A stretch of 41,403 nucleotides of DNA from an uncultured Pseudomonadota bacterium (lineage in GTDB: Bacteria > Pseudomonadota > Alphaproteobacteria > Rs-D84), in NCBI GenBank assembly GCA_902799285.1, contig CADCAA010000004.1:1-41403 (forward strand). Direction: 5' to 3'. Position 1 is the first letter of the stretch. Every line of letters begins with the position of its first letter. The notes under the pieces are model-generated. The model saw only the letters and a program-made list of their open reading frames with translations. It searched no databases and was not told the origin of the DNA. Positions 1,907 to 41,403 of this stretch are shown here, piece after piece. Position numbers and translations under genes: made by a program.

Positions 1907-2298
1907 CAAGGATTAACGTTATTCCCGTCAGCGAATTGTCTGATCAGCACCTTATCGCCGAATACCGTGAATTGCCACGTGTGCTGAAACAAAACATCAA
2001 TATCACGGATGCGCCGCATGTGTATTGCCTGGGGCATGGCCACATGAAATGGGCAAAACGGCACAGCATATTTACCGCCCGCCGGTATGGTCAATTATTG
2101 CGCGAAATGCATCACCGCGGATTCAAAACCAATTTTACGGATTCCGGGCCGGAATTATTCACAGCACAAATGCGCGATTATGATTATGACCCAACGGGTC
2201 CGGACATCGAATTAAACCGCCAGCGCATTCGTGAAAAATTTAACATGAAACCGGATTGGTACCGCTGGACCAACCGCACAAAACCAAATTGGTTATAA
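1903..2298 (+). CDS. denV: Pyrimidine-dimer DNA glycosylase (T4 endonuclease V family)
   Basis: N-terminus MTRINVIPVSELSDQHLIAEYRELPRV, plus LGHGHM and W-Y-R C-terminal motifs typical of DenV. Confidence 0.9.
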   Translation: MTRINVIPVSELSDQHLIAEYRELPRVLKQNINITDAPHVYCLGHGHMKWAKRHSIFTARRYGQLLREMHHRGFKTNFTDSGPELFTAQMRDYDYDPTGPDIELNRQRIREKFNMKPDWYRWTNRTKPNWL

Positions 2299-2314
2299 AT
2301 CAAAAGGGGTTAAA

Positions 2315-2971
2315 ATGATTGAAAAATTAAGCGAATATGAAATCACTAGTCGAGATGGGTCTTTTATAAATGTAGAATGCAACACAAAAATAATAAATAC
2401 GCTAGTTCGAAAAATCAACGAACTTGTAGATGCTGTCAATGAAATGCAAGAAAGCCAGAACACATACTGGACAGATATTGCTGAAATAAAGAAAGAATTA
2501 CAAACTCGTGCCGAAAATGTGCAACCAGATGCCGAAAGTCGTCCGGAAAATGTGATAACCGACAAAGATTATATCACAATAACCGCCGACGATGTGCTTG
2601 TTGGTGGCGAATCTGTGCGTGAATATAACGGTGAAAAAATTTATAATTATTATCATTTGCCGGCGTATTTCAAAGAAATTAGGGATGATGTTGCGGAAAA
2701 AGGAATAAAATTACTGGAAATCCATTGTTTGCAATCATCAACAGACGGCGAATATGCCAAAACAGGCAATCCAATGCCCGATAAAGACGGTTGTTCTGCT
2801 TGGTGTCGTTGTGTATGGGAAAAAGACGGTGAAAAACATATTGGGTCGTGGGTGTTCTTCAACTCGTTCAGTTCGGCGGCCTATTGTGCGTACATCTGTG
2901 CGAACCACTGCGCGTACGCCGTTCGCGCCATCGCGGACTTCCGTTCGGCGGTCTTTGGTGGGCAAGATTGA
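2315..2971 (+). CDS. Putative DGR target protein (N-terminal coiled coil, Cys-rich C-terminal variable domain)
   Basis: C-terminal SWVF..SAAxCAxxCAxxCAxxVRxxAxFRSAVFG encoded by A-free constant codons and NNY variable codons. Confidence 0.75.
   Translation: MIEKLSEYEITSRDGSFINVECNTKIINTLVRKINELVDAVNEMQESQNTYWTDIAEIKKELQTRAENVQPDAESRPENVITDKDYITITADDVLVGGESVREYNGEKIYNYYHLPAYFKEIRDDVAEKGIKLLEIHCLQSSTDGEYAKTGNPMPDKDGCSAWCRCVWEKDGEKHIGSWVFFNSFSSAAYCAYICANHCAYAVRAIADFRSAVFGGQD
2843..2962 (+). other. Putative DGR variable region (VR)
   Basis: 40 codons, 74/120 G+C, only 12 A, all at codon positions 1-2 of NNY codons; no codon ends in A. Confidence 0.72.
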
Positions 2972-2998
2972 TAAAGCGTAATGCGTAAGGCAAAATTT

Positions 2999-3083
2999 GG
3001 GGTGTTCTGCAAGGTGCGTTTGAAATTCTAGATAGCACGCTTGCATCGGAAGTCCTGCCGTTCGACTCGGCAACGCCCCACCA
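2999..3083 (+). ncRNA. tRNA-like RNA lacking a D arm
   Basis: Acceptor GGGGTGT/ACGCCCC plus A-CCA; T arm TGCCG-TTCGACT-CGGCA; D and anticodon region replaced by one hairpin TGCAAG-GTGC...GCAC-G-CTTGCA. Confidence 0.75.
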
Positions 3084-3120
3084 AGAAAAAGGCAATATAT
3101 ACAAAATAAAGGAGGCGACA

Positions 3121-3480
3121 ATGAGTGATATGAAATGTCCGTTCTGTCAGCAGGGATTGGAAATGGTTTTACAATTAGCAGGTGCTGGCGGTTTGGTAGA
3201 AGAGGCATATTTATTATGTTCTAAATGTAATATAAGGGGTGAAAGAAAACTATGGCAAGAACTTAAAGACCTTTCCGATAAAATCGGAAAACTGGAACCT
3301 GAATTGGAACGCACACGCAAGGCATTGGATGTCGCAAAGTATGCGTTAAAAAACATAAAAGATGATATGAAAAAAGTAAAAGATGGTGATGATATATGGG
3401 AAATACAAAAAAATCTGCACGATTATTGTAAAACAACCATAAAACAAATAACAACACTAGAACAAAAGGATGTAAAATGA
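3121..3480 (+). CDS. Zinc-ribbon (CPFC...CSKC) plus coiled-coil protein
   Basis: AAGGAGG RBS; two CxxC motifs; ends in LEQKDVK junction. Confidence 0.75.
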   Translation: MSDMKCPFCQQGLEMVLQLAGAGGLVEEAYLLCSKCNIRGERKLWQELKDLSDKIGKLEPELERTRKALDVAKYALKNIKDDMKKVKDGDDIWEIQKNLHDYCKTTIKQITTLEQKDVK

Positions 3481-3854
3481 ACGACAGATTTAAGTTTAGA
3501 GTGTGGGACGATAAAGTATCAAAAAAATATTTTTACCTTGAATTAAAATTTGGCGACAATGGTTATCATCCAGATTTTATTACAGACCCAGTATTTGAAC
3601 AATGCACAGGTTTGAAAGATAAAAATGGAAACCTGATTTATATCGGTGACATAATAAAATGCGGCGATGGTCTATTTAGCACCGCTACTGTAGAATACGC
3701 AAATGGCGAAAACTTTATAGATGGCATATACCCATTTAATTTGTACCACGATTGTGGTGACGAGTGCCATTGTCAGTTGCGCGATTACCCTGAATATGCC
3801 TGTGAAATCATTGGCAACATACACGAACAAGCAGAACAAAAGGATGTAAAATGA
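3477..3854 (+). CDS. YopX family protein
   Basis: KFRVWD...EQCTGLKDKNGNLIYIGDII...EIIGNIHE motifs. Confidence 0.9.
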   Translation: MNDRFKFRVWDDKVSKKYFYLELKFGDNGYHPDFITDPVFEQCTGLKDKNGNLIYIGDIIKCGDGLFSTATVEYANGENFIDGIYPFNLYHDCGDECHCQLRDYPEYACEIIGNIHEQAEQKDVK

Positions 3855-4003
3855 AATACACAATAACACCGTCAGAACAAAAAGTTATAACATTTGCGAA
3901 ATTGCGTAAAATTGCCAAGATTTTATCAAATGAACCTTGTGATATTTGTGCCAAAGGCAACGGTTATGAATTGGATTTTTGTTATGGAAAGGACAAAAAA
4001 TAA
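3851..4003 (+). CDS. Small hypothetical protein (50 aa, not in ORF track)
   Basis: Starts at junction ATG; MKYTITPSEQKVITFAKLRK...CDIC...GKDKK. Confidence 0.6.
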   Translation: MKYTITPSEQKVITFAKLRKIAKILSNEPCDICAKGNGYELDFCYGKDKK

Positions 4004-4028
4004 CAGCACTGGAACAAAAGGACAAGTG

Positions 4029-4241
4029 ATGAAACTAACAGAAATAAATAACACCCAACATTATTGTACGGTTCGTTTTGATAAACAAACACCTGAACAC
4101 ATTGCGGTTCAAATTGGTATTGCCAACAACGGCACTATTGCTATTTGGAACAATCAAGATGGCGACCAAATAAATATACCGTTTAAGGATTTGGGTATTA
4201 AATACATTGTATTTGAAAAAGCAGAACAAAAGGATAAGTGA
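4029..4241 (+). CDS. Hypothetical protein (70 aa)
   Basis: Starts at junction ATG (MKLTEIN), ends AEQKDK. Confidence 0.7.
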   Translation: MKLTEINNTQHYCTVRFDKQTPEHIAVQIGIANNGTIAIWNNQDGDQINIPFKDLGIKYIVFEKAEQKDK

Positions 4242-4387
4242 TGTTTGGGGCGTTTTCAAAAAAACAAATAGGGCAGGTTGAAACAGTTGGCGATAGCAGG
4301 GGTCAGGTATTTAGAAAATTGGTGCAAAAAGGACTTGACCCAAACCAGTTTGAAATTCGTGAGTTGTTAGAACAAAAGGATAAGTAA
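4241..4387 (+). CDS. Small hypothetical protein (48 aa, not in ORF track)
   Basis: TGATG overlap; MFGAFSKKQ...LLEQKDK. Confidence 0.65.
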   Translation: MFGAFSKKQIGQVETVGDSRGQVFRKLVQKGLDPNQFEIRELLEQKDK

Positions 4388-4584
4388 TGACACAAATGCG
4401 TGATAGTTTGGAAATAATAGCACCCAAGGGGTTGATTCATTACATGGATGTGGTTATTCGTTCGTGTTGGGAAAAAATGTATGACGATGAATTTGGGGCA
4501 CTTAAATCACTGCTAGATAGTTGTAAATACTGTATTGAAACAGCAGAAAAGAAAAAATGGGTAAAACAAAAGGACGTGAAATGA
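4387..4584 (+). CDS. Hypothetical protein (65 aa)
   Basis: TAATG overlap; ends KQKDVK. Confidence 0.7.
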   Translation: MTQMRDSLEIIAPKGLIHYMDVVIRSCWEKMYDDEFGALKSLLDSCKYCIETAEKKKWVKQKDVK

Positions 4585-4733
4585 ATTTCATTATAAAAAT
4601 TTTCTGCGGGGTTGGAATGTTTGTTTTGGCCACTGCATTGGGACGTTGGTTGCCATCTTGGAATAATGTTATTTTCTGGATGGCTGGGGTAACTTATTAC
4701 GTATTCTTGGAAGAAATACGAAAAAAAGGATAA
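4581..4733 (+). CDS. Small membrane protein (50 aa, not in ORF track)
   Basis: Junction ATG; MNFIIKIFCGVGMFVLATALG...VIFWMAGVTYYVFL has two hydrophobic segments. Confidence 0.6.
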   Translation: MNFIIKIFCGVGMFVLATALGRWLPSWNNVIFWMAGVTYYVFLEEIRKKG

Positions 4734-4736
4734 ACG

Positions 4737-4874
4737 ATGAAACAATATCAATATGACTATATTTGCGCAATGCTTTGGAGTATTTTTGGGTGTATGTTGA
4801 ATGATCCATTAAGTATCGTTGCATGGATTGTAGGAATTGTTTACGGCACAATTGCCATTTTTTCAAAAAAGTAA
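4737..4874 (+). CDS. Small membrane protein (45 aa, not in ORF track)
   Basis: AAGGA RBS; MKQYQYDYICAMLWSIFGCMLNDPLSIVAWIVGIVYGTIAIFSKK. Confidence 0.55.
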   Translation: MKQYQYDYICAMLWSIFGCMLNDPLSIVAWIVGIVYGTIAIFSKK

Positions 4875-5667: not shown

Positions 5668-5928
5668 ATGACAAAACTTGAACATAAATTGACAAGAATG
5701 GCCAGCGCAAATGGTTATTCACCATCAGATACCGAATTGTATTCGGCATCTGGTCATCTTGTCCGGTTTTTGCGTGCTGTGACCGTATTAAAGAAAGAAC
5801 ATGACGACAAATTGCGTAATTTTGGCCCGGATCAGTTCCGAGAAACAAGACAAAGAATATTCGCTGCCGGCGCAGGTATCACGCCTGTCCGACTATGCGG
5901 CACGCCGGCAAATGACCGTATTGCGTGA
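5668..5928 (+). CDS. Hypothetical protein overlapping integrase start (possible directionality factor)
   Basis: AAAGGTGG RBS before ATG 5668; long overlap with integrase lowers confidence; function inferred from position only. Confidence 0.35.
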   Translation: MTKLEHKLTRMASANGYSPSDTELYSASGHLVRFLRAVTVLKKEHDDKLRNFGPDQFRETRQRIFAAGAGITPVRLCGTPANDRIA

Positions 5929-7348
5929 ATTTGTTTTAGTCGAATCATCCACAACCGGTGACCGTAAAAAATTCCTTGAATGTTTAAATTATTGCGTAGC
6001 AAATCGCGCCGCATTATTGATTGATACAATTGATCGCGCCCAGCGGTCTTTTATGGAAATACCGCTTTTAGAAAAATACCGCCGTTCTGGGCAATTGGAA
6101 ATCCATTTTTGCCGTGAAAACATTGTTATAAATGCCGAAAGTTCCGGCACTGAAATCATTATGTGGCACCAGGGTGTTTTAATGGCGGAATCATACAGTT
6201 TGCATTTCAAAGAAAATGTTAAACGGTCCATTTCGGTAAAGGTTGCCCGGGGCGAATATCCGGGTCGTGGGCCTTTGGGTTATAAAAACATCCGCACCGC
6301 TCATAATCGGTCTGATATTTTGCCGGATGATAATGCGGATCTTGTGCGGCAATTATTCGTAAAATATGGCTCTGGGGACGTTTCGTTGTCCGGACTGGTT
6401 AGTTATGCCTATGATATTGGTTTGCGCACTGATACGGGCGGAAAGTTGGCAAAATCGCATATTCATAAAATAATGTCAAATCCGTTTTATTATGGTGTGG
6501 CCCGGTGGGGCAAATATACATTTCCGCATAAATATACGCCACTGATTGAAAAACCGCTTTGGGATAAATGTAATGCGCTTTTGGCGGGCAAAAATCAGCA
6601 CCCATCAACCCGGTGGGGCAGCAAGGATTATTTGTATCGCGGTTTAATTCGTGATTTTTATTCACATCGTCTGGTTACAACCGAACGCAAAAAGGATAAA
6701 TACAATTATTTGATGACATGGAATGAATCCGGGCGGCATGTGGCGGTCAATGAAGATGTGGTTACTGCCCAAATATATAAAGTGTTGAAAATGATCCAAG
6801 TGCCACGCGATGTTATTGCCGATGTGCGGGAATATCTGAAATCGGCCAAGGAAATCGAATCGGAATATGCAGCGCGTGCCATAGCAGAATTGCAAAATGA
6901 TTTGAATGTGGCGATAAAACGACAATCGGCATTGGTGAATATGTACCTGGATGGCAAAATCGCCGATGACCTGTATTCGACCAAAGATGCCGAATTAAAG
7001 GCGCAAATTGCGGAAATTCAATCAAAACTGGATGCCAATGTTTCTGCGGATTCCGGTGTAAATGATACAATTGTCCAGTTATTTACCGCGGCATCGTGTG
7101 CGGCGGATCTGTTTATAGAAAGTTCGGAAGTTGCCCCAAAACGCGAAATCATAAAATCCATCTTCCGAACTGTTGAATTAAAAGGCAAAACCCTTTGTTA
7201 TGACTTGAATTTTCCGTTCAATTTATTCATAACAAAGGGTGAAAGAACTATATGGCGCGCCCTAGCGGACGATTTCCGAACTTTGTATGCAGATGATGTG
7301 CGGAAATTTGCGGCAAATTGGAATTGGGTGGTGCCGTTGGCCGCATAA
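5801..7348 (+). CDS. Large serine recombinase (integrase)
   Basis: ARISSEKQ catalytic motif, DTIDRAQR, recombinase domain (PLGYKN, SNPFYYG, PLIEKPLW), C-terminal coiled coil. Confidence 0.95.
   Translation: MTTNCVILARISSEKQDKEYSLPAQVSRLSDYAARRQMTVLREFVLVESSTTGDRKKFLECLNYCVANRAALLIDTIDRAQRSFMEIPLLEKYRRSGQLEIHFCRENIVINAESSGTEIIMWHQGVLMAESYSLHFKENVKRSISVKVARGEYPGRGPLGYKNIRTAHNRSDILPDDNADLVRQLFVKYGSGDVSLSGLVSYAYDIGLRTDTGGKLAKSHIHKIMSNPFYYGVARWGKYTFPHKYTPLIEKPLWDKCNALLAGKNQHPSTRWGSKDYLYRGLIRDFYSHRLVTTERKKDKYNYLMTWNESGRHVAVNEDVVTAQIYKVLKMIQVPRDVIADVREYLKSAKEIESEYAARAIAELQNDLNVAIKRQSALVNMYLDGKIADDLYSTKDAELKAQIAEIQSKLDANVSADSGVNDTIVQLFTAASCAADLFIESSEVAPKREIIKSIFRTVELKGKTLCYDLNFPFNLFITKGERTIWRALADDFRTLYADDVRKFAANWNWVVPLAA
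7253..7269 (-). other. Putative attP core resembling a tRNA-Arg 3' end
   Basis: Minus strand reads TCCGCTAGGGCGCGCCA; AGGGCGCGCCA is the 3' end of argU-type tRNA-Arg; lies inside the integrase C-terminal coding region. Confidence 0.6.
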
Positions 7349-12876: not shown

Positions 12877-14460
12877 TTATGCAGTTCTACGCCATATGTT
12901 CGCCACATAAGCAGGTGGCTGAACAGTGCTAGATGCCCCATAGATAGAACTTGAACGGGATGCATCAAAATTAGCAACATTATTATTACTTTCCGCATTT
13001 TCAAGCGCACCACCGGTTTTTGATGGGCCTTTACCAGTGCGTTTGAAAGCGCCTGTAAAATAACTACCATCATTACCAAGATTTCCACCGCCTAAAATTT
13101 TACCTGTAATGTTTGGCAATCCTGCGTTAATAGTGGTGTTCGCAGAATGGTTTGTGCTAGAACCTTGAATGCTTTTATCTTGTGCTACTAATTCCCAAGT
13201 AGAACCAGGTATAAGTGTAGTAAGTGGGCATGTTGTTTGGGTGCCAAAGTATAGTGACCCAACAGGGTAAAGAGCAGCAAGTATACCATCAACTTCGTTT
13301 TTGGTGTAAACACTTAGGCCACCATCTACGTCGTCTGTAATAAAGCATACCCAATCTGGATGCGACACAGCCACATTTTGGTCGTTATATTCCTGCAGTG
13401 TTCCAACCCAATCATAAACCGGATTGGTTGCACCTACTGCTGTATTCGCATTTACTGTCGCAACAGCTTGGATTTCATCATCATTATTCTTTGTAATAGT
13501 TAAATTGTCAATCGCATCTATTGAACCACCGCCTGCATCCAGCGCAATAGTATCACCACTTGCTTGATTTAATGTAAAACTACCTTTTGTCACGCCTCCT
13601 TGTGTTATTGTTATTGTCGCATCATTTACTATCGGTATTGAAGCACTGGGGGCATATGTTGTAGAATCCACCGACCCATCGGCTTTCAAAAACTGTGATG
13701 ATGTTCCACCGCTTTTAACAAACGAATCCGCAGTTAAACTGCCATATATTGTGCTGTTCCCAGTTTTTGATACATACGATAATAATCCTGTGTTTGACGG
13801 TCTAGCACAAAAGTACTCTAATTCAACCGGGTTTAGTGTTCCCGAAGTTCGGTTGTTCACAAAAGTAAATGTTATTTTAGAAATAGCATTTGCTGTTGGC
13901 AGAGTTGGAACTTCTGCAATCAACACCAAACCGTTTGTTGAGTACGCGGTTGGGGTTAATGTCGCAACGTTCCCATTAGCGTTTTCTATTTGTATTGTAA
14001 CATCAGACGCCGCCTTTGGCCCCCTTCCTGAATAAAACGATATTAAAATATATCCTTGACGATATGTTCCAGTAATAGCCGTTCCAGTAACCGTAACAAC
14101 ACCTGTTCCGCCAACATCAATATTGTTATATGAATAATTTTCAAAAACCCCATCGAATAATGCAGCAGCATTAAAACTAGTAAAGCCCGTTCCTGTTACT
14201 GTAAATCTACGGTTTAAGCTATAAAAACAGTTATCAAGTGTAGATAAAAACAATTTACCATTATTATTAAACGAATTTAAGTTTTGTATAATAGCGTTGT
14301 ATGAAACCTTATTATTAAGTTGTGGTTGTATTGCACTTGTAACACCATCAATACAATTATCAATGTATGTTTTTGTCGCTTTTTGCGAAACAACGGTGGA
14401 ATCGCTAGGGGAATTTCCGCCCAGTGTATTATCTGTGCTGATGTTCAAAAACTTTGTCAT
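12877..14460 (-). CDS. Tail fibre / receptor-binding protein
   Basis: 527 aa, S/T/G-rich; GGTSSQFLKADGSVD linker; C-terminal YPVGSLY...VQPPAYVANIWRRTA domain. Confidence 0.8.
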   Translation of the reverse strand: MTKFLNISTDNTLGGNSPSDSTVVSQKATKTYIDNCIDGVTSAIQPQLNNKVSYNAIIQNLNSFNNNGKLFLSTLDNCFYSLNRRFTVTGTGFTSFNAAALFDGVFENYSYNNIDVGGTGVVTVTGTAITGTYRQGYILISFYSGRGPKAASDVTIQIENANGNVATLTPTAYSTNGLVLIAEVPTLPTANAISKITFTFVNNRTSGTLNPVELEYFCARPSNTGLLSYVSKTGNSTIYGSLTADSFVKSGGTSSQFLKADGSVDSTTYAPSASIPIVNDATITITQGGVTKGSFTLNQASGDTIALDAGGGSIDAIDNLTITKNNDDEIQAVATVNANTAVGATNPVYDWVGTLQEYNDQNVAVSHPDWVCFITDDVDGGLSVYTKNEVDGILAALYPVGSLYFGTQTTCPLTTLIPGSTWELVAQDKSIQGSSTNHSANTTINAGLPNITGKILGGGNLGNDGSYFTGAFKRTGKGPSKTGGALENAESNNNVANFDASRSSSIYGASSTVQPPAYVANIWRRTA

Positions 14461-19740: not shown

Positions 19741-20843
19741 TATGCAACCTCTGTATTATTATAAAACCAAGGATCACGATTGCGGGTTTTTGAAATATAG
19801 TTTTTAATCAGTGCATTTGGATACACTAATTTTAAATCAGCGGTGCATCCGGATGTGTTTGAAACCGTCAAATCCACCGATTTTACAATCAATCTGTTAT
19901 CAACATGGGCAAATTCATCCACCAAATTTACAATAGTACCACCATGCAAAATATTGCCCAAATCGTCCGTCCATCCATTGATTTTATACCCAAATTCAGC
20001 CGATGCGGCAATTGCGGACCGATATTCTTGTTCCGCAGAATTAATGTCGGCATTGGAATCTTGGTTTGTTTGGGCAATAACCACCTTTGGCCGGTACCGG
20101 CTGATACCGGAATCTTTGTATGTTCCCGATGCCATATATGCATATTCGGCGGTTTCATCGCCATCAACGGCGGTATCTTGGGATTCGACAATATATTCTG
20201 AAAACCTATCACGTGATGAAAATTTAACATCCGCAGACAACACGTTTGACATTTCTGATTGCGGTTTGTTATAAATCGTTGCAACCGATACATCGGCGGC
20301 CAAATCGGTTATTATTAAATTGCCATCGACATCATCTGTATAAAAAACACCGCCACGTTTGCAAATTTCGGTTATAATTCCGGCGCATGTGTCGCCAACA
20401 TTGGCATTGTATTCGCCAATGGTCCAATCATGGCATTTCCAAATGACATTTATGCCAAATGGTCGGCATATTTCCATGATTGTGCGCATCGCCGATTGAC
20501 CGTTGAATTGTGCATCACCGGTATAGGAACAATCCACCAAATCGGCGGTTTTACTGCGCGCGCGAATTACTATATCATGCGATGTTCCGCTGTAATTTAC
20601 CGAAACATTGTCAATGTATCCGGTCAAAACCGTTTTATCATCGCAAATTACCGATATTGGTGACCCCATTGTTAAATTTCCGGCTGCCGATGTGGCATCC
20701 AAATTATCCGATACAGACAATGATACTTCGCGGGCAATTTCACCAATTGCCATATGAATATTTGCAGATTTCCAAAACGAATACCGCCGTCCGTCTAATT
20801 TTACGGCAATATCAGATGTTTCAAAATCGTTGTTTTTCGTCAT
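19740..20843 (-). CDS. Baseplate hub, Mu gp44/P-like
   Basis: VLTGYID, RSKTADLVDCS, RFSEY, RYRP. Confidence 0.9.
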   Translation of the reverse strand: MTKNNDFETSDIAVKLDGRRYSFWKSANIHMAIGEIAREVSLSVSDNLDATSAAGNLTMGSPISVICDDKTVLTGYIDNVSVNYSGTSHDIVIRARSKTADLVDCSYTGDAQFNGQSAMRTIMEICRPFGINVIWKCHDWTIGEYNANVGDTCAGIITEICKRGGVFYTDDVDGNLIITDLAADVSVATIYNKPQSEMSNVLSADVKFSSRDRFSEYIVESQDTAVDGDETAEYAYMASGTYKDSGISRYRPKVVIAQTNQDSNADINSAEQEYRSAIAASAEFGYKINGWTDDLGNILHGGTIVNLVDEFAHVDNRLIVKSVDLTVSNTSGCTADLKLVYPNALIKNYISKTRNRDPWFYNNTEVA

Positions 20844-22054
20844 TTATCCAAAACCTTAATTCCAATTCCGGATGGCAAAAATGTGGGATTTTGCACCAAA
20901 TTTTGCGTTGCAATGTCCACCCCGCGTGATTGGTCATTGTATAATTCATGTGCCAAAACGCGTGCAGGGGTCGATACATTTAATTCAATTTCGCGCTCTT
21001 CGGGCAATCTGGCAATAATTTCATTGCAAACCGCAACCGCATTTGTTGTTGCATCCGCCACGGCGGTGGTAAATTCAACCGACATATCAATATCAGAATT
21101 CAATATTTTGTCCGCTGAATTCAATAAATCGTCACGAATTTCGATAATATCGCGCCGGCGGGAAACATCGATGTCCGCCAAAGTGGTTATTGCCCCAGAT
21201 ATAGATGTTGCAATATTAAAATTATTTGTCCGGACGGTTGCGCGATGTGTTGATTTGCCACTTTCGGTCAATTGTAAAATATTTTCTGGTTTTACATCTG
21301 TATCCGCAGAATGCAAAACATTATGGATATTTTTCTTGGTTGCGGGCAATAATTGATTTATAACAGCAACCGCACCTTGGACGCGTGCCGACCATTTATC
21401 TGGGGTGGCAAGCAAAGTTTCGACATTATTTTTCAAATCATCCAATTCCAGCGCAACAGAAACGGCAGAATCAATTCCGCCCGTCAATGTATCGGCGGTA
21501 TCTTGGATTCCATCCACAATTTGGGATAAATTATCAACGATTGCAGATGCCACAGATGATACCGTTGAAACAGAATCAGCCACGTAATCGGCGGACAATT
21601 TCAAAAATTCTGTGGCGGATGCAATATTTAATGCCCCCGCAATAGATGCCAGACGATCCACTAATGCAGATGTTATCATTGGTGCGGGTTGTGCGCCGGA
21701 TTCCACAAATGTTATTGTGAATTCGGATTCGTATATTTTTAATGATTCATGGACATTATAACCATCGACACAAACGGTGTATTTTTTACCGTTTGGATGC
21801 ACCAATTCACCGGGGCCACGCAAATCCAATGCGTCTTGCAGACGTGTTGCGCGTTTTCGCCAATCTTTGCCATTTACAAATGCGGTCAATTGAATTTTGT
21901 ATGCCTTGCGCCCCAAATCTTCGGTCATTGGGGTATTGGATCCGGGGTATTCGTGTGTTTCCAACCGCCGTCCAGATTCATAAGTATCATCGCGGACATC
22001 AAATTCCACCCCACGAAACGATGCTTTTCTGTTATATTTTTTGAAATCTGTCAT
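20840..22054 (-). CDS. Mu N-like DNA circulation protein
   Basis: ASFRGVEF, GRRLETHEYP, EDLGR, GPGELVHP, NPTFLP. Confidence 0.9.
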   Translation of the reverse strand: MTDFKKYNRKASFRGVEFDVRDDTYESGRRLETHEYPGSNTPMTEDLGRKAYKIQLTAFVNGKDWRKRATRLQDALDLRGPGELVHPNGKKYTVCVDGYNVHESLKIYESEFTITFVESGAQPAPMITSALVDRLASIAGALNIASATEFLKLSADYVADSVSTVSSVASAIVDNLSQIVDGIQDTADTLTGGIDSAVSVALELDDLKNNVETLLATPDKWSARVQGAVAVINQLLPATKKNIHNVLHSADTDVKPENILQLTESGKSTHRATVRTNNFNIATSISGAITTLADIDVSRRRDIIEIRDDLLNSADKILNSDIDMSVEFTTAVADATTNAVAVCNEIIARLPEEREIELNVSTPARVLAHELYNDQSRGVDIATQNLVQNPTFLPSGIGIKVLDK

Positions 22055-23526
22055 TGTATTGTTCCCCCATTTGCCCCACGATAAATTTCCAAATCCAGAT
22101 TTGTGTCACGTGATACCGTATCAATCCGTGTCATTGGTGGCGTGTTATCAAACCGGACATTGATGTCGGCACTTTGCCGGATACCGCCTGATGTTGCAAT
22201 TTGTATCTGGGAATCCGACAATGGCGACATTTGCAAACCGGACGACATGCCGGGTGAATATTTTGGTAAAATATTCATTTCGCGCAATGTATCATCCGCC
22301 GCCGCACGTTGTTCCACGGTTAATGTATTACCACCAAATAAACCAGCAACCCATTGTGCTGCATTTTTCAATGCGTCAAATATACGTTTTAATATTTTGC
22401 ATTTATCAATCGTTTTTTGGATCCATGCGGTAAAATCTTTCCAATGATATATCAAAGCAACAATTCCGGCGGTTAATGCAACAATTCCCGCAATAATCCA
22501 TGTTATTGGACTGGCCCATAATGCCGCATTAAATATACCGGTCGCCACTGCCAAATTTTTTAATGCGCCGGCCAGTTTTATAATATTTAATATCAATCCG
22601 GCGGCCTTGGCAAAAAACAATACATAAACCAATTCAGAATATTTGGCAAATAATTTAACCAAAGGTCCCATGATTGTGGCAATGTTTTTCAAAACATTAA
22701 ACAGATTTGTTCCCCATTCAACCGCCTTGGTCGCAATCAATTCTTTGTTTTGGGAAATCCATTCCGAAATTTTATTGACCACGGGGGTTAAAACCGGCAA
22801 AACCTTGTTCATTATAGTGTATCCGACACCCTCCATGGCCTTGCGGACACGAACAACGGCACGTCCCCATTCATCCGCGGCAGTACCACCCTGTTCAGAA
22901 ACAAGACCAAAATTTTCGGCTTCTTTTTCAAATTTTGCCATTGATTCTGCGCCGATATTTGCCAATGAAATCAATTCTTGGCCGGCTTTTCCAAATGCGG
23001 CGGTTGCCAAATATGCTTTTTGTTGGGCGGTGCCGGCCTTGTTAATTGCCTGCATCATCAGCCGAAATGCCGTTTCATTGTCTTTGGCGGCACGTAATTG
23101 GCGCAATAATTGTGGATTTGATTTTTTAAGTGCCGAATACAATGCACCGGAACCGCTATGCAATTCACCCATGGATTTGGATAATTTTTGTAATGATTTA
23201 TCAAAACCCTCGGTCGATACATCGTTTTGTTCGGCGGCATAACGCAATTTTTGGTATGCTTCGACATTTAACCCGACCACATTGGCCATAGTTTGCAAAT
23301 TGTCCGCTTGGTTCGCCATTTTGTTAATGGCCGCCACCGCCGCCGTTGCGGCACCCCCAAATGTGGTGACAATGCCACGTGCAGAACGTGCGACATTACC
23401 CGCCGCATTTTGCACGGTTTTTAATGCACCCTCGAACTTTTTGAATTTATAAGTCAGCGATTCCAGCGTTTTAGATGCCAGGTCTTTTGCCGAAATCTCA
23501 ACTTCTTTTTTAACCTTTGTTGCCAC
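22051..23526 (-). CDS. Tape measure protein (short, 491 aa)
   Basis: Ala/Lys-rich helical, hydrophobic segments, position after chaperone. Confidence 0.85.
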   Translation of the reverse strand: MATKVKKEVEISAKDLASKTLESLTYKFKKFEGALKTVQNAAGNVARSARGIVTTFGGAATAAVAAINKMANQADNLQTMANVVGLNVEAYQKLRYAAEQNDVSTEGFDKSLQKLSKSMGELHSGSGALYSALKKSNPQLLRQLRAAKDNETAFRLMMQAINKAGTAQQKAYLATAAFGKAGQELISLANIGAESMAKFEKEAENFGLVSEQGGTAADEWGRAVVRVRKAMEGVGYTIMNKVLPVLTPVVNKISEWISQNKELIATKAVEWGTNLFNVLKNIATIMGPLVKLFAKYSELVYVLFFAKAAGLILNIIKLAGALKNLAVATGIFNAALWASPITWIIAGIVALTAGIVALIYHWKDFTAWIQKTIDKCKILKRIFDALKNAAQWVAGLFGGNTLTVEQRAAADDTLREMNILPKYSPGMSSGLQMSPLSDSQIQIATSGGIRQSADINVRFDNTPPMTRIDTVSRDTNLDLEIYRGANGGTIQ

Positions 23527-24355: not shown

Positions 24356-25822
24356 TTAAAAGTTTAATCTGAATTCAACCAATGCCGCGAATATCAGCAA
24401 TTGATTTACCAAATCCGGCGCAATGTATGCATTCACGCGGTTGACATCCGATTTATCGCGTTCAACAACCAGGGCCGCTGCAAACAATTCTTCGTTTTCG
24501 CAAACGACCGGTGAATTTATGCACATATCATGATATTGTGCCAAGATTTCCGCTTTCAAAATGCCGGGGGTTACAACTGCGTTATCTGTGCCGGCATAAC
24601 CATCGTCCGCCAATTTGTAATCTGGATATTTGGATGTAATTGCACTGCGTAATTTACGGACAATATATTGCAATGTGTACATTGTGTTTGTTTCACGATA
24701 TGAAACATCGGCTTCGCCTGCGCTATTTCTTTGATATGTGGTCACAATGCGTTCAATTTGGAATGCGCTTTCGGTGAAACGGAATGTTGAAATACCGTTG
24801 CCCAACAATGTGTTACGGGTTGCTTTATCCCAACGATTTGCTTCGGTTGGCATATACACACCGGCAATTTCAGCAAATGTGACAGGACGTGCTGGGTCAT
24901 TGATATATGCCAATGCAATGCGCCCAACCGCGGCGGCCAAGATTTCATCCGTCAATTGACGTGCGCCTTGGATACCGAATATCGTATTGTGTTGGTCATT
25001 ACGTGCATTACCAAATGTTTGGCATGCAGATGCAGTTCCCGCCAAAATGGACCATGCATGGCCATAAATTTGCTGGTCATCGGACCAACGACCGACTGTA
25101 TCATTCATGAAATCGCGGATGACATTCAAATTTGTTGTATCACAGAATGGATTTATAATGAAATCGTATTCACGATCACCCAAAACTGCAATTTTTTCTG
25201 TCAAATCTGGGTCGCCGGCACCGGATGCAAATTCCGTGATTGTTGGTGTGATACCCGCCGGGGTTTCTTCACCGGCATCTGTGCCATTCATGTTAATTTC
25301 AATCATAATGCCGTTGCCCCATGCGCCTTTGGCGGTTGCGGTCAATGTGATTTCACCACCGGATGCCGATGCGGTACATGGCAACATTGTATTGGCATTG
25401 ATTAATGCGGCGGCGGCGGTCGCAATACTGGATGCGGTATCGCCACTGGCCACAGGAACTTGGACCCGGGTTGCATTGATATATAACTGCAATATTCCGT
25501 CAGCGGTTGCAGTACCAGCCAGGGTCAACTTACCGGTCGCTGCAACGCCGGCGGAATTTTCTTTTACTGGCAAAATCCATAATTCTGTGGATGTGTTATT
25601 TGCACGGAATTTCAAATAATCGCGATGGCACATTGAACCACGCCCCGTTTTTTCAATAACGGTTGCTTCGTCTGTGGCAAAGAATGGTATTTCATAATCT
25701 GTTGTTGCCAGACCAATTATCAAAGCACGTCCAGAATTTGAAAGAATATTGGCTGCACGATTGGAAATTTCGGCATGAAACAATGGAATTTTTGTATTGT
25801 TTGGCACATTTTTAAAGTTCAT
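24356..25822 (-). CDS. Tail sheath protein (Mu gpL-like)
   Basis: DPARP, RNTLLGNGIST, TTYQRN, PDLVNQL.IFA. Confidence 0.95.
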   Translation of the reverse strand: MNFKNVPNNTKIPLFHAEISNRAANILSNSGRALIIGLATTDYEIPFFATDEATVIEKTGRGSMCHRDYLKFRANNTSTELWILPVKENSAGVAATGKLTLAGTATADGILQLYINATRVQVPVASGDTASSIATAAAALINANTMLPCTASASGGEITLTATAKGAWGNGIMIEINMNGTDAGEETPAGITPTITEFASGAGDPDLTEKIAVLGDREYDFIINPFCDTTNLNVIRDFMNDTVGRWSDDQQIYGHAWSILAGTASACQTFGNARNDQHNTIFGIQGARQLTDEILAAAVGRIALAYINDPARPVTFAEIAGVYMPTEANRWDKATRNTLLGNGISTFRFTESAFQIERIVTTYQRNSAGEADVSYRETNTMYTLQYIVRKLRSAITSKYPDYKLADDGYAGTDNAVVTPGILKAEILAQYHDMCINSPVVCENEELFAAALVVERDKSDVNRVNAYIAPDLVNQLLIFAALVEFRLNF

Positions 25823-27193: not shown

Positions 27194-28204
27194 TTAGCTG
27201 TTGCTCTTGGTGACGCGGATCAACACATCCGGTTTGTTGCAGATTGGCAACGGATTTGTTTCCGCGCGAACCACAACTTTGTCTTCGCCATCTTGTTTTT
27301 CATAAGATTGGGTCAGATATTTTGCTTTACCATCTTCGTTGGCGAAATCCAACAAATCGGCCGGTGCATAATACATTTTGAATGTATTGCGTGTTCCCAA
27401 AGGTAATGCGATTGCTTCGTCCGCAGGTATAAATGGTACGCCATTTGCACTGCCGGCATATTTCACAAATACCAAGTTTTGGAATTCAAAACCGTCACGT
27501 AAATCGTTGATTAATGGATTTGGACCAACTTCGCGGTTTTTGTACAGGTCAAAGATTGTTTTGTTCTTTAACATAGCCGCCCAGAATCCAGGACTGCACA
27601 AAACCAACGTGGATGTTTTGGTTTCATCACCCAATGCTGTATCGATTGCTGTATCCAATGCATCCGCTGTGCCAATAACATCGCCATTTGTACCGAAATT
27701 AAAGTTAATTGTGGTCTGTTGTTTGCCAAATGCAGTGAATAAATTGACAATTGTGTTACCCTCGGCATCGGCAACGGTTCCTTGTAATGCTTTTGCAATC
27801 AAGAATTCGTGTGTCAATTCCATTGCATCGTTCAATGGACGTGCTTTTTTGGCAATTGCATTTTCCAAATTTTCCAAAGAACGTGTGGATGTATCGATAA
27901 CATTTTGCAAATCTTGTGCCGTGACGTATGCTTTGCGTTTAAAGTTTGGCACACTCAAAGTCACCGCTTTGTTTGAACGTGGTTTTTGGGTGCTGGATGG
28001 GCCGCCGCGTGATGTTTGTGGCATTACGGACAATTCGCCCTCGGAAACATCCAAAACAACTGTTGTTGTATTGATTGGTTCTTCGTCAAATAAACCCATG
28101 CTTTTCAATTTGCGCCATACTTTTGGATTGCGGTTAACCGCATCTGTCAATGTTGCAGCCGAAAATTTATCGTCTTGCAATAAAGTGATAACGTTTTCAA
28201 TCAT
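27194..28204 (-). CDS. Major capsid protein (lambda gpE family)
   Basis: LTDAVN, GLF, THEFL..KALQG, TF..YYAPAD, ETNPLPIC.KPD. Confidence 0.92.
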   Translation of the reverse strand: MIENVITLLQDDKFSAATLTDAVNRNPKVWRKLKSMGLFDEEPINTTTVVLDVSEGELSVMPQTSRGGPSSTQKPRSNKAVTLSVPNFKRKAYVTAQDLQNVIDTSTRSLENLENAIAKKARPLNDAMELTHEFLIAKALQGTVADAEGNTIVNLFTAFGKQQTTINFNFGTNGDVIGTADALDTAIDTALGDETKTSTLVLCSPGFWAAMLKNKTIFDLYKNREVGPNPLINDLRDGFEFQNLVFVKYAGSANGVPFIPADEAIALPLGTRNTFKMYYAPADLLDFANEDGKAKYLTQSYEKQDGEDKVVVRAETNPLPICNKPDVLIRVTKSNS

Positions 28205-28627: not shown

Positions 28628-29029
28628 TTACAGCCGCGCTGCCAAACTTTTCACGTTGCTTTCGTGTGTTTCTTCGCGACTTGGTTCTACTGTGGCCCTG
28701 GTATTGATCACATCTTGTGTTTCACGCGATGCAACCAAATTCTTGCTGAATTCATCTGGTGTTATGCCGTCTGCAATTGCTTTGGCCAACACAGATGCAT
28801 TCACATTGGCGGTTGTCGCCAATTCTGATAATGCGGCAACGCGTTCGCGTTCATTGGCGACTGCGTTTGCACGAATTTCGTCTGCATTTTCCACTGCCGG
28901 TGTTTCAACAATGGATTCTGCGGGTGTTTCGACTGGCTCTGTTTCTGATGCTTCTTCTGCCACAACCGGTGCGGCATCTTCGGCGACCACAGGTGCCATG
29001 TCCTCTGCTTTTATACCATCATCTTTCAT
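28628..29029 (-). CDS. Internal in-frame scaffolding protein (Nu3-like)
   Basis: AAGGGGG RBS 7 nt before in-frame ATG 29029 (MKDDG); ERERVAAL motif. Confidence 0.6.
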   Translation of the reverse strand: MKDDGIKAEDMAPVVAEDAAPVVAEEASETEPVETPAESIVETPAVENADEIRANAVANERERVAALSELATTANVNASVLAKAIADGITPDEFSKNLVASRETQDVINTRATVEPSREETHESNVKSLAARL

Positions 29030-29830
29030 GGTGTTGCCCCCTTGGTCTTTGGTTAAAAAACTCATAAAATCATCAAATGTGGCAAATGTGCCGTCAATCA
29101 TCCGGCGATCCAATGCTTCACGTCCAGAAAACACTGCGCCTTTGCCAAAATTTGATTTCACAAAATCTGTTGTTACCCCACGATTTGCGGCCAACATTTC
29201 AATAAATTGGCCATTAATCGAATTAATGCGGTCCAAATAACTTTGCATACCCTCGGGTGTGGTTGGGTCTGCGTTTTTCATTGGCGAATCCGTGGCGACA
29301 ATTTGAATATATTTGACACCATCACCATCTGGTTCTTCTTGGTGCGATGCAACAATCATCGTTCCAACACTGCCAATTTCAGCCGCCGGATTCGCATAAA
29401 TCTGTTTGCATGCAGATGCCAATCCATATGCGGCGGATGCTGCCATCGAACCAACCCACCCATAAATCGGTTTTTTTGCGCCCATTTTGCGAATATATGC
29501 CGCCATTTCGAACATTTCAGACGATGACCCGCCGGGGCTATCAAAATCCAAAACAATATTTGCCACGGTTTCATCGTTTATGGCATTTTTCAAATCTTCC
29601 ATAATCCATTCGTATGAATTGTATCCGGCAAAAAATTCCGCAAATGACAAATGATTAACCAATGGCCCCGTTATACCCAAAATGGCGGTATTGCCAATTT
29701 TGCGCACGAATGTTTCACGGTTTATTTTCATTTGGTCTTCGGACAAAACCGATAATGTTTTGTTGGTGCGACCTTGCATTGCTTCAATCGCGCCTGGCAA
29801 CATTAATAAAACTTTGCTTTTGTTTTTCAT
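28628..29830 (-). CDS. S49 family prohead protease with C-terminal scaffold (lambda gpC-like)
   Basis: DSPGG, MAASAAYGLAS, GSVG; acidic/Ala-rich C-terminus. Confidence 0.92.
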   Translation of the reverse strand: MKNKSKVLLMLPGAIEAMQGRTNKTLSVLSEDQMKINRETFVRKIGNTAILGITGPLVNHLSFAEFFAGYNSYEWIMEDLKNAINDETVANIVLDFDSPGGSSSEMFEMAAYIRKMGAKKPIYGWVGSMAASAAYGLASACKQIYANPAAEIGSVGTMIVASHQEEPDGDGVKYIQIVATDSPMKNADPTTPEGMQSYLDRINSINGQFIEMLAANRGVTTDFVKSNFGKGAVFSGREALDRRMIDGTFATFDDFMSFLTKDQGGNTMKDDGIKAEDMAPVVAEDAAPVVAEEASETEPVETPAESIVETPAVENADEIRANAVANERERVAALSELATTANVNASVLAKAIADGITPDEFSKNLVASRETQDVINTRATVEPSREETHESNVKSLAARL

Positions 29831-29878: not shown

Positions 29879-31360
29879 TCAAGCATCATTTGCGGCATCA
29901 TTGCCAAATTGCTGTTCAATTGCGCGTTCTGCCGCAATCTGCGCCTGTAATTCCGCAAAATCACGTCCCCGGGCGGCGGCCGCAATCGTACGTGTTGAAA
30001 TTCCTGCATTAATTTCAGCCGCAACCGCGTTGATTTCCTGTAATGGATTGATGTATTTCCAACCCGGTGCCTGCCAATTTATCGCCGTATAATATGATTT
30101 GCGGGATGCATAATCTGGAATTTTCAATATGCCGGACACGACCGCTTGGTCGAACCATTTTTGCCATACAAATCTTTTGACTTTTTTGATAAATTCATCT
30201 TGGTCAACGCCAAATTTGATTTCTTCCAAATTCTTGGCAACACGGATGCCGGAATATGAATTACCGCGCAGGTCGCCTGAATATGTTTCGTACGATAATC
30301 CCATTGCTTTGGCGGCGGTTCGGTTCTTGCCGGCAATGTATGCATCATAGTTTGGATCAGATTCCGCGACTTTGGTTACTTCCAATTTTTCGCCGGGATA
30401 CAAATGTACAACCGACCCTTTGTTGATAACGGCCGGATCTGTTCCCATGATTTGTGGTTGGCTTGTGATACCGTTATCTTGTGAAAAAGTGTTTATATCG
30501 TTGCCCAATTCGGACATTACAGATGAATCTGTGGATTGGATGGTCGCGTATGTCGCAGACGAATTCTTTTTGCGTTCCAATTCGTTTTCTTCGTAAATCA
30601 TCAAATCGCGCATCTGCATTTGACCGGCGTATGCACGCGGTGACCCACGCAATTGACCCGCACGTGACCGTTTAAAATAATGACATATTTCGTCTGCGGG
30701 GACGCGGATGCGGTCAAATGATTTATTTATAACCGCCACATCTGTGGGGTTGTTTTTGAAAAAATGATATGCGACAATTTGATTTTGCTTGTTAAATTCA
30801 ATGCCGGCAATAATTCGTCCGCCATCTTTGAGTGTTTCATTATATGTATAATCCAAACATTCGGATTCTATTACTTGGAATTGGATTGGAACGACCAATC
30901 CGGCAGACATCGGTCTGTAAATTACGCGCAAAAACACTTCGCCAGCTTCGTCACGTTCGCGAACCAATATTCTGTCCATGCTGTCCAGGTCAAACCCATC
31001 ATAATCGGCATCCAAAATCCATTCGTTCCACAAATTTTTAATCTGTTCGCGCAATTTTTCATCTTTGCACATTGGAATACCACGAATACCCTTGCCAATA
31101 ATATTTGCGACACGGGTGTCATAACCATCGTCTAATTCTGGTATTTTTCTGGTCACATCGCGTGAATAGGAACGAATTCTGCCAAATCCGGCAACAATAT
31201 TCGCGTTTGGACCGCCATTTTGTGGGCTGTATAATCTTTGTGATCCACCATTACTGCCACCAGTATTAAACAATGGTTCTAATGCAAAGGCACGACCAAT
31301 GGCGGTGTATGCCTTGCCAAGCACAGAAAACAAAGATTTTGGTTTTGTATTATTGCTCAT
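29879..31360 (-). CDS. Portal protein, lambda gpB family
   Basis: GEVF, GIEFN, RAGQLRG, SYE..SGD...SYS, W..INP..E. Confidence 0.95.
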   Translation of the reverse strand: MSNNTKPKSLFSVLGKAYTAIGRAFALEPLFNTGGSNGGSQRLYSPQNGGPNANIVAGFGRIRSYSRDVTRKIPELDDGYDTRVANIIGKGIRGIPMCKDEKLREQIKNLWNEWILDADYDGFDLDSMDRILVRERDEAGEVFLRVIYRPMSAGLVVPIQFQVIESECLDYTYNETLKDGGRIIAGIEFNKQNQIVAYHFFKNNPTDVAVINKSFDRIRVPADEICHYFKRSRAGQLRGSPRAYAGQMQMRDLMIYEENELERKKNSSATYATIQSTDSSVMSELGNDINTFSQDNGITSQPQIMGTDPAVINKGSVVHLYPGEKLEVTKVAESDPNYDAYIAGKNRTAAKAMGLSYETYSGDLRGNSYSGIRVAKNLEEIKFGVDQDEFIKKVKRFVWQKWFDQAVVSGILKIPDYASRKSYYTAINWQAPGWKYINPLQEINAVAAEINAGISTRTIAAAARGRDFAELQAQIAAERAIEQQFGNDAANDA

Positions 31361-38851: not shown

Positions 38852-39116
38852 TTGCAGGCACCCTGTTTATATATGGAACTATTTGATAATTTTGACGAAA
38901 CGGTACAGCCACGGCGTTTAACCCTGCACGTGCGATTTCAATCGTTGGTGCAAATCCAACTATCCGTTTATTGTGCCGCATTAATATTGCGAACCCGTAT
39001 TCCATGTTTGACCCTGTTTTTTGTATGCAAAACACCCTGCGGTTCGTGACCGTTTTATGTTTTACATTCATGTTTTTGCGGGTTGCCCCGCGCTTTTTCT
39101 GCCCCGCCGCTGTCAT
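38841..39116 (-). CDS. Hypothetical basic protein
   Basis: 91 aa ORF in operon orientation. Confidence 0.5.
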   Translation of the reverse strand: MTAAGQKKRGATRKNMNVKHKTVTNRRVFCIQKTGSNMEYGFAILMRHNKRIVGFAPTIEIARAGLNAVAVPFRQNYQIVPYINRVPANER

Positions 39117-39168
39117 TTCAGATTCTTATCTCTCTCTTACTGTGCAGGCCGGTGGCGCACGAAACTGT

Positions 39169-39444
39169 TTATCCGAAATCGAATTCCATCTGCACGCCAA
39201 TGGCATTGCAGTACATTTTTAATAATTCGTTGTATTCGGAAACTTTTTCGGGGTCTGCGGCACGCAGTTTTATGACTTTTTTAATAAATTTGGGATCATA
39301 TCCGGCGGATTTCGCTTCGGAATAAATTTCAGACATATCCGCATTGATTTGTTTGTGCTGTTCTTCTAAACGTTCCAAACGTTCAACAAATCCACGCAGT
39401 ATTTCGCCATCTATCGCGCCGTGATTTTGTTTTATACGTGCCAT
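39169..39444 (-). CDS. gapR: GapR/DUF2312 nucleoid-associated protein homologue
   Basis: LRGFVERLERLEE...IYSEAKSAGYDPK..KKVIKLR...LL.MY..AIG. Confidence 0.9.
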   Translation of the reverse strand: MARIKQNHGAIDGEILRGFVERLERLEEQHKQINADMSEIYSEAKSAGYDPKFIKKVIKLRAADPEKVSEYNELLKMYCNAIGVQMEFDFG

Positions 39445-39478
39445 TTTCCTTTCCCCCTGTTTTCTTTTTCATGCGTAT

Positions 39479-39525
39479 TGTAAATTATAAATTACATAAA
39501 GTCAAGCAATTTGTGCAACTTATAA
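39479..39525 (-). promoter_or_regulatory. Leftward early promoter/operator
   Basis: TTGACT-N17-TACAAT; 42/47 identical to the inverted copy at 41088-41134. Confidence 0.8.
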
Positions 39526-39581
39526 TTGACACAGCAAAAACAAGTAGTGGAAATTTTGCAAATTCAGTATATAATCTGAAT

Positions 39582-41034: not shown

Positions 41035-41087
41035 TTGTTTTCCTTTTGTTTTTATTTTACATAATTTGCTCCTTTTTGTTTATTTGT

Positions 41088-41134
41088 TTATAAATTACAC
41101 AAATCACTTGACATTATGTAATTTATAATTTACA
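41088..41134 (+). promoter_or_regulatory. Rightward early promoter/operator
   Basis: TTGACA-N17-TACACT; inverted near-copy of 39479-39525. Confidence 0.8.
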
Positions 41135-41170
41135 CTATGTATCGGACAAAGGCAAATTAAGGAGGAAATC

Positions 41171-41359: not shown

Positions 41360-41403
41360 CACAGGCAGGGGGGGCTGATTTACCATGACTATTCTGGACA
41401 CTG
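41305..41403. repeat. Terminal direct repeat (circular assembly overlap), right copy
   Basis: Identical to 1-99; ORF 41171-41359 and the start of ORF 81-905 read through it. Confidence 0.95.

Follow-up and report, generated by a model that had tools for sequence, protein, structure and literature searches.

Diversity-generating retroelements (DGRs) are treated as self-contained cassettes. In Bordetella phage BPP-1 (mtd, avd, template repeat, brt), sequence information flows adenine-specifically from the template repeat (TR) into a variable region (VR) that lies 3′-terminally in a phage gene, the variable sites have AAY codons, and the 3′ segment of the VR is constant and GC-rich; all of these features recur at the locus described here. 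To our knowledge, known phage DGRs all carry their own reverse transcriptase (RT) and TR. In cellular DGRs of the Treponema denticola type, one TR and one RT serve several distant VRs, as is again the case here; for phage-associated DGRs, the survey PMC5758913 argues against remote targets on the ground that these would not be co-inherited. The DNA analyzed (hereafter, the window) is the whole of contig C4, 41,403 nucleotides, of the uncultured alphaproteobacterial assembly GCA_902799285.1 (47 contigs, 857,750 bases, 94% complete, 0.3% contamination). It is the genome of a temperate myovirus-type phage, in which a gene at 2315-2971 ends in a VR, and the fitting TR and an RT were located on another contig, C42, of the same assembly. 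The phage VR is read here as a genuine, recently used recipient of the host DGR, with a probability of roughly 0.8. The elements concerned are listed below, coordinates without a prefix being those of the window.

2315-2971, plus strand: target gene, 218 aa, no Pfam family
2846-2959, plus strand: VR, 114 nt, codons 178-215 of 218, homologous to the TR at G000:C42:1477-1590
2933-2959, plus strand: constant 3′ segment of the VR, the 27 nt that follow the last AAC pair, TR-identical, in the position of an initiation of mutagenic homing (IMH)-like element
G000:C42:1477-1590: TR, 27 adenines, mostly in AAC AAC pairs between TGT GCG, TGC GCG and GTT CGC
G000:C42:1879-2205 (= L001:931-1254): open reading frame (ORF) of 108 aa between TR and RT
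G000:C42:2206-3234: RT, 342 aa, starting 616 nt after the TR
G000:C42:3626-3739: VR of a convergent target gene, which runs off the contig

Between the phage VR and the C42 TR, 15 mismatches were counted; every one falls on one of the 27 TR adenines, and the remaining 87 positions are identical (hypergeometric P 8e-12). The substitutions were 10 A>T, 3 A>C and 2 A>G, 12 of the 27 adenines being unchanged, and the 12 variable residues are templated by 11 AAC codons and one AAT codon. When 2781-2971 was compared with the assembly by blastn, 2846-2959 was matched on C42 (twice), C10, C6 and C1, and no similarity extended beyond the repeat, though the scaffold was identical at 87 of 87 positions. 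The VR at C10:24006-24119 differed from the C42 TR at adenines only (17 of 17 mismatches) and that at C42:3626-3739 almost only (13 of 14), so that at least three VRs of the assembly fit the C42 TR. The copies on C6 and C1, with 12 and 24 non-adenine mismatches, respectively, look decayed or foreign to the C42 TR. The VR on C10 is internal to its gene (G000:C10:23067-25244, L056), the frame continuing for more than 370 codons, and the module that follows it was also observed in the C1 target protein (ATGKQTRP..CLLVEGTDGTPHWY).

A six-frame search of all 47 contigs with RVT_1 (PF00078; E≤10) gave a single match, at C42:2449-2997 (E 1.2e-13), and none in the window. The 342-aa protein matched the same family with E 9.5e-13 and contains IGNLTSQ and YCDD; the form [LIV]GxxxSQ is a mark of DGR RTs. 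A search of PMC5758913 for this mark gave no mention of it. Between TR and RT, an ORF of 108-122 aa is common to the C42 cassette and to that of the metagenomic record L048 described below (1020-1388); on inspection by eye, its sequence looks rich in beta-type stretches and unlike Avd. It may be a new DGR accessory protein.

An earlier note, made from the letters of the window, had called the VR an orphan and had predicted diversification in trans by a host retroelement, with a non-coding template of the form TGT GCG AAC AAC..GTT CGC AAC AAC beside an RT and with mismatches confined to template adenines. Such a template was found at G000:C42:1477-1590 beside the RT, the confinement was complete for the phage VR, and TR and RT lie on C42 with neither in the phage; the term orphan thus holds for the phage genome and fails for the assembly. 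An internal TR was excluded, since neither blastn nor an adenine-blind scan of the window (≤40 mismatches allowed at the 87 non-A positions) gave a second copy of the repeat, and the phage genome is complete in so far as it has a direct terminal repeat of 99 nt (1-99 = 41305-41403), which makes it a closed circle of 41,304 bp. The composition switch at the 3′ end of the gene was likewise borne out: 2843-2962 contains 12 A in 120 nt (10.0%) at 61.7% G+C, against 38.3% A and 37.1% G+C in 2315-2842, and the adenines all lie at codon positions 1 (five) and 2 (seven), with none at position 3. The claim that every scaffold codon is free of A had to be dropped, as AGT and GAC each hold one, both as in the template, and the repeat itself, correctly located as a region, spans 2846-2959 rather than 2843-2962. 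Intervals of 120 nt with ≤12 A made up 0.034% of those in the contig (mean 31.8, sd 6.8) and fell into two clusters, 2841-2963 and 39033-39161. The latter, the only other plus-strand stretch of this kind, starts a minus-strand ORF and is without a repeat partner.

A profile of 73 homologues of the target protein retrieved three IMG/VR records with the gene (L045-L047), each with a single copy of the domain and no RVT_1 match. Their VRs hold 9-15 A in 114 nt and differ from the C42 TR at 12-21 scaffold positions. One of them, phage G146 (L045; 35,194 nt, with a direct terminal repeat), encodes terminase, adaptor, head and tail proteins, and no TR was found in it, the full sequence holding one repeat copy. 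By scanning a metagenome collection with an exact 20-nt scaffold stretch of L045, the record L048 (5,662 nt) was obtained. This record holds two VRs and a TR with 26 adenines, together with an RT, a homologue of the 108-aa ORF, and M23 peptidase and methyltransferase genes. Of the 18 mismatches between the G146 VR and the L048 TR, 17 fall on adenines (P 7e-13). In a further record (L052), a target gene stands beside the genes for ribosomal proteins L13 and S9 and trigger factor. By these sequence comparisons, two structurally unrelated phages carry a VR that fits a cellular TR. The IMG/VR carriers of the gene had also been considered as relatives of the window phage and were rejected as such, none of four matching its terminase or major head protein. 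For phages L046 and L047, no fitting TR was present among the TRs sampled (L046 against the L048 TR, 7 non-A mismatches), and the protein of G061/L002 has only about 45 N-terminal residues in common with the target and no VR. Three other IMG/VR records hold relatives of the RT with 36-46% identity, and a VR of the window type was absent from the stretch examined in each.

The cellular origin of the retroelement was judged from its neighbors and relatives. On C42, a pyruvate:ferredoxin oxidoreductase gene (POR_N, E 6.5e-28) lies 270 nt from the TR; at G000:C42:940-1206 this gene shifts frame near its 5′ end, by assembly error or as a pseudogene. C10, the 25-kb contig with the perfectly fitting VR, also encodes Cpn60 and Obg. 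Relatives of the RT with 51-76% identity turned up in 12 of 36 further genomes from the genus, mostly on large contigs, and the nearest ones in a species-representative collection (59-75%) lie on records of 24-445 kb labeled Candidatus Enterousia sp., Alphaproteobacteria bacterium or uncultured proteobacterium; more distant ones (32-40%) belong to DPANN archaeal records. The link to gut alphaproteobacteria made in the earlier note was upheld by these Candidatus Enterousia sp. relatives and by two homologues of the target protein labeled 'Alphaproteobacteria bacterium'. The fit is genome-specific: ten further TR-like repeats, taken from the genomes of relatives, all fail to fit the window VR (the closest has 11 non-A mismatches) and match only VRs of the genome they come from, and the TR scaffolds of sister species differ at 11-30 positions. 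Run X1, possibly the source, contained the whole phage as one record together with two short records, one with the C42 VR and one with, probably, the TR (by its 15 differences), at depths of 10.9 for the phage and 3.4 and 5.95 for the short records, values unusable as copy numbers. By the labels of its relatives, the host is a gut alphaproteobacterium of about 0.86 Mb, the closest RT-bearing ones being labeled Candidatus Enterousia.

The distribution of variation among homologues follows the template. In the alignment of 73 homologues, the 12 AAY-templated positions have entropies of 2.24-3.20 bits and 9-14 residue types, and scaffold positions lacking a template A stay at ≤1.15 bits, boundary residue 178 excepted, so that only the AAY-templated residues are hypervariable. 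Proteins P0003 and P0006 show 2 differences among 155 residues outside the VR, 8 among the 12 templated sites and 1 among the 23 scaffold sites; for P0035 and P0042 the counts are 3 of 175, 9 of 12 and 2 of 23, respectively.

Because the last 27 nt of the phage VR and the TR are identical, donor and recipient must be told apart further downstream, a case of identical IMH and IMH* that was foreseen in PMC5758913. The 3′ flanks of 40 repeats with at least 25 nt of flank (29 VR-like and 11 TR-like) were aligned and motifs counted within 26 nt. ATTGAT was present in 13 of 29 VR-like and 0 of 11 TR-like flanks, and TTGAT in 18 of 29 and 0 of 11; GCTCCT was present in 9 of 11 TR-like flanks (in a tenth, by eye, just past the counted span) and in 0 of 29 VR-like ones. 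In the window, the motif is as follows.

2967-2974, plus strand: ATTGATAA, 7 nt past the repeat, including the stop codon TGA at 2969-2971

At the corresponding place, the C42 TR has GGCTCCTGG. In all four viral VRs, ATTGAT stands at +7 to +10. Its bases form stop codons in the window and Ile-Asp-Lys in the continuing frames of L018, L019 and L021, so the conservation is at the DNA level. From their distribution, the ATTGAT-type and GCTCCT motifs are candidate elements distinguishing VR from TR, and ATTGAT may serve in target recognition. The TRs of G000:C42, L004, L009, L011, L012, L014 and L048 are followed by GGCTCCTKG, a hairpin-prone stretch and then AAGTTTSGCYAACCTGTRGGGACA; this shared stretch is probably a conserved 3′ part of the TR RNA used in priming.

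The target protein was divided into two parts.

2315-2518, plus strand: N-terminal module, aa 1-68, with a long helix at 20-68
2552-2968, plus strand: variable domain, aa 80-218, alpha/beta

In the full-length model, the long helix 20-68 was formed, the VR was poorly modeled, and structural matches were to coiled coils only. The C-terminal 139 residues modeled alone (82 aligned rows) gave a predicted local distance difference test score (pLDDT) of 96.9 and a predicted template modeling score of 0.91, with a predicted layout in which three short strands and a helix precede four strands and a pair of helices. In this domain model, the last strand (100-105) and helices 109-126 and 128-134 are formed by the VR, so that the CAxxCAxxCAxx pattern would set the variable pairs on one helix face. 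No convincing structural relative of the domain was found by Foldseek against the PDB (best E 0.37) or by VIA-align, whose highest Z among 48,161 representative chains was 4.2 (cut-off Z≥5). The model agrees with the description in the earlier note of a CAxxCAxxC helix that is not an obvious C-type lectin, and the predicted domain is possibly a new fold. A trimer model scored 0.58 (best of three controls, 0.25). In the calibration, which unlike the trimer run did not use a custom alignment and three copies, 20 of 30 one-chain pairs among solved structures attained this mark, as did 1 of 23 single chains. Its interface comprised residues 1-65 in register, with at least 42% contact agreement among runs and a partner pLDDT of at least 77; helix 20-68 is thus predicted to form a parallel homotrimeric coiled coil. 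Residues 3-75 matched best a monocin side fibre (Z 5.9, root-mean-square deviation 3.0, 71 aligned), within the range of long-helix noise.

Pfam matches of the whole protein were all below cut-off and resembled coiled-coil noise, PHROGs gave one unknown family at the N-terminus (E 3e-4), and the protein atlas gave no match ≥0.9. No signal peptide was seen in the 218-aa protein or in its chromosomal paralogues by eye, with no predictor run. In other viral and metagenomic proteins, the N-terminal module is joined to unrelated C-terminal domains. The variable domain was found in 57 of 121 genus genomes, the window's included, and occurs also as small chromosomal paralogues, often in tandem, and at the C-termini of large host proteins. 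At G088:C6:91248-94045 (L022) and like loci, tandem arrays of up to six paralogues of 119-191 aa were observed, some with degenerate Cys patterns. On the models, our best guess is that the 218-aa protein would be an oligomeric fibre-like or adaptor protein with a diversified ligand-binding head, with roughly even odds of its being virion-borne or intracellular; as its gene is located away from the tail module, a classical tail fibre is slightly less likely.

Several points count against the reading of the phage VR as a recently used recipient of the host DGR. In X1, the sole run holding the phage, one sequence of the VR was found, X1 and three runs with small shares being checked as assembled contigs only; the exact target protein occurs on four contigs as one sequence in its 90% cluster, and the near-identical homologues P0022 and P0027 have no VR difference. 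No GC-rich inverted repeat follows the phage VR, an element reported for only 34% (127/372) of DGRs in PMC5758913, and no hairpin better than those of shuffled sequences was found after the phage VR (DNA fold of 2940-3060, z -0.22) or after the TR. Homology to the TR extends 12 nt 5′ of the first variable base in the phage, and the host VRs share at least 12 nt more. Neither Pfam nor PHROGs placed the 108-aa ORF in a family, and the cassette showed no recognizable Avd-like accessory gene. C42 is 3,839 nt long with 47% G+C versus about 42% in the bin, and phage and host are tied together only by co-binning, by their joint occurrence in one run and by the match of TR and VR. Eleven of the 29 VR-like repeats lack even TTGAT, and the ATTGAT counts were drawn from related, non-independent genomes.

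The uniform VR sequence, the identity of P0022 and P0027 and the lack of an inverted repeat would suit a frozen VR, that is, an already diversified host domain that was captured by the phage or by an ancestor of the cassette and is no longer rewritten, its TR match being historical. This is considered unlikely, because the scaffold is free of mismatches at all 87 positions while those of sister-species TRs differ at 11-30, no nucleotide similarity to host genes remains directly 5′ of the repeat, the scaffold of the second, unrelated phage tracks another cellular TR, 8-9 of the 12 templated sites differ between near-identical homologues, and the VR-type flank motif is kept in all four viral copies. 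Copying of the phage VR from a host paralogue by homologous recombination, for which at least three homologous VRs would be available in the same cell and for which the 3′ flank bases GATTGATA, common to the phage VR and C42:3626-3739, may be cited, is harder still to maintain: the phage VR differs from C42:3626-3739 at 13 of 114 positions and from C10 at 21 of 114 with no obvious mosaic, and its 15 differences from the TR are a set of adenine substitutions of its own.

The shortness and composition of C42, together with the frame break in its oxidoreductase gene and the RT relatives on three IMG/VR records, raise the possibility that the retroelement is not the host's and that C42 comes from another phage, a satellite or a plasmid, or was mis-binned. 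Since C42 is short and off-composition, its assignment to the bin is drawn from the C10 VR and from relatives, and these point the other way: the POR_N gene adjoins the TR, the VR with adenine-only mismatches stands on a 25-kb contig with Cpn60 and Obg, the L048 cassette is followed by M23 peptidase and methyltransferase genes and the L052 target adjoins L13, S9 and trigger factor, RT relatives lie deep inside contigs of up to 445 kb, and the three viral RT records lack such a VR in the stretch examined. An origin of C42 outside the host therefore appears very improbable, only marginally less so than recombination with a paralogue. That a GC-rich, Cys/Ala-rich helix merely resembles a VR by chance or composition is scarcely credible; low-A intervals do recur once in the contig, at 39033-39161, but the match is ungapped over 114 nt with adenine-only mismatches (P ~8e-12), and the pattern was repeated in a second pair of phage and TR.

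If the phage VR is a recently used recipient, the process may be pictured as follows. The temperate phage would reside in a cell carrying the chromosomal C42 DGR, the host RT would copy the TR RNA with random bases placed opposite adenines, and the cDNA would replace the phage VR, by analogy with the Bordetella phage DGR. Rewriting would hit the 12 AAY-templated codons of a small alpha/beta domain carried on an N-terminal coiled coil, and the same C42 TR would also serve the chromosomal targets on C10 and C42. We infer that homing into the phage copy is still under way. A wider reading, which is favored by a narrow balance of probability, is that Enterousia-like phages outsource hypermutation: a portable cassette (coiled-coil stalk, new-fold head, ATTGAT-flanked VR) would move between unrelated phages and be rewritten by the chromosomal DGR of each host, its scaffold tracking the TR of that host.

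The remaining genes of the phage genome were assigned as follows.

12877-33580, minus strand: whole structural module, without an RT
31616-33580, minus strand: large terminase, structural module
29879-31360, minus strand: portal, structural module
28628-29830, minus strand: head protease, structural module
27194-28204, minus strand: major head protein, structural module
24356-25822, minus strand: tail sheath, structural module
22051-23526, minus strand: tape measure, structural module
20840-22054, minus strand: baseplate hub, structural module
12877-14460, minus strand: tail protein, structural module
5801-7348, plus strand: large serine recombinase, Resolvase and Recombinase domains (Pfam)
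plus strand, opposite to the structural genes: accessory block with a DenV-like pyrimidine-dimer glycosylase, YopX, the large serine recombinase and the target gene

The structural genes, sheath included, and the large serine recombinase identify a temperate, myovirus-type phage. The serine recombinase indicates a temperate lifestyle, which would give the host DGR time on phage DNA. A tRNA-Ser is also encoded. A related major head protein was found in only 1 of 120 other genus genomes, with 31% identity, so prophage copies were unusable for replication of the finding. At that locus (G029:C3:60187-60363 and 73342-74322), a short RT-like fragment with 53% identity over residues 231-289 lies about 13 kb from the head protein gene; the locus may be a prophage with a DGR remnant.

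Three further structures were observed in the window. About 30 nt past the target gene, 2998-3083 (plus strand) forms a tRNA-like fold (RNAfold -35.8 kcal/mol, z -3.1) with an 8-bp acceptor-like stem, a single long hairpin where the D and anticodon arms would be, a hairpin resembling a T arm (loop TTCGACT), and a 3′ ACCA. It was not called by ARAGORN or Rfam (E≤1) and is not kept after the homologous gene in L045-L047, and positions 3006-3072 are covered by short contigs from two other runs. Within 2297-4746 (repeat families D1 and D3), a 27-28-nt junction, GAACAAAAGGAT..ATG, recurs at the starts of at least six small plus-strand genes, giving every ORF before it the ending ..EQKD(V)K; the junction resembles a coupling or ribosome-binding cassette that is used repeatedly. 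A 70-nt inverted repeat (39471-39540 and 41073-41142, 79% complementary) lies at two AT-rich promoter-like regions, and its arms, which are possibly shared operators, bracket a module including ORF 39438-40073. This ORF, which by eye looks like a phospholipase-D-type nuclease, matched only families of unknown function in PHROGs.

If hypermutation is outsourced in this way, the evolvability of a phage protein would depend on the host, and the TR/VR match would record who infects whom. Phage proteins could then be hypermutable without any phage retroelement gene, and since no such gene is present in the phage, RT-centered surveys would miss these targets; PMC8144416, the largest metagenome survey, states that remote targets are invisible to its RT-centered approach. 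Dependence of a phage trait on a host-encoded mutator would be a new kind of host dependence. The match of VR scaffold and TR may allow culture-free, strain-level assignment of phage to host, the unsolved fold of the variable domain would widen the range of scaffolds known to tolerate DGR variation, and the motifs in the VR and TR flanks provide a testable handle on the discrimination of recipient and donor.

No report of a phage VR served by a host DGR was found in the literature as covered, which did not extend to the supplements of PMC5758913 (Table S1, non-adjacent targets) and PMC8144416, or in passages of the preprint 10.1101/2024.11.15.621889. Neither 'Enterousia' nor 'host DGR' occurred in the DGR papers searched for each, and PMC10743442 held none of the terms sought.

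Compared with the described systems, the locus departs from each in a definite way. BPP-1 encodes RT, TR and Avd beside its target, whereas the window phage encodes none of them; moreover, no Avd-like gene was recognized here, no inverted repeat follows the VR, and the gene is located away from the tail module. Foldseek and VIA-align returned no C-type lectin structure (Mtd, TvpA and the like) for the variable domain. With the DGRs of the Candidate Phyla Radiation (CPR) and DPANN, the system shares a small-genome host, several targets per element and target proteins outside any Pfam family, and its more distant RT relatives are on DPANN records; its host, however, is alphaproteobacterial by the labels of its relatives. 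Hankyphage, crAss-like phages, Faecalibacterium prophages and tentaclins are likewise cases of gut phages with hypermutated proteins, and all of these are described with a full cassette, in contrast to the window phage without RT or TR. In cellular DGRs with remote targets, the targets lie on the replicon of the element itself, whereas the remote target here lies on an independent, packaged replicon, so that each lytic cycle separates the target from its machinery. Mutagenesis of adenines, AAY codons and remote targets have precedents; what sets the present case apart is that the target sits in a packaged phage genome and the machinery on the host chromosome, as seen in two unrelated phages.

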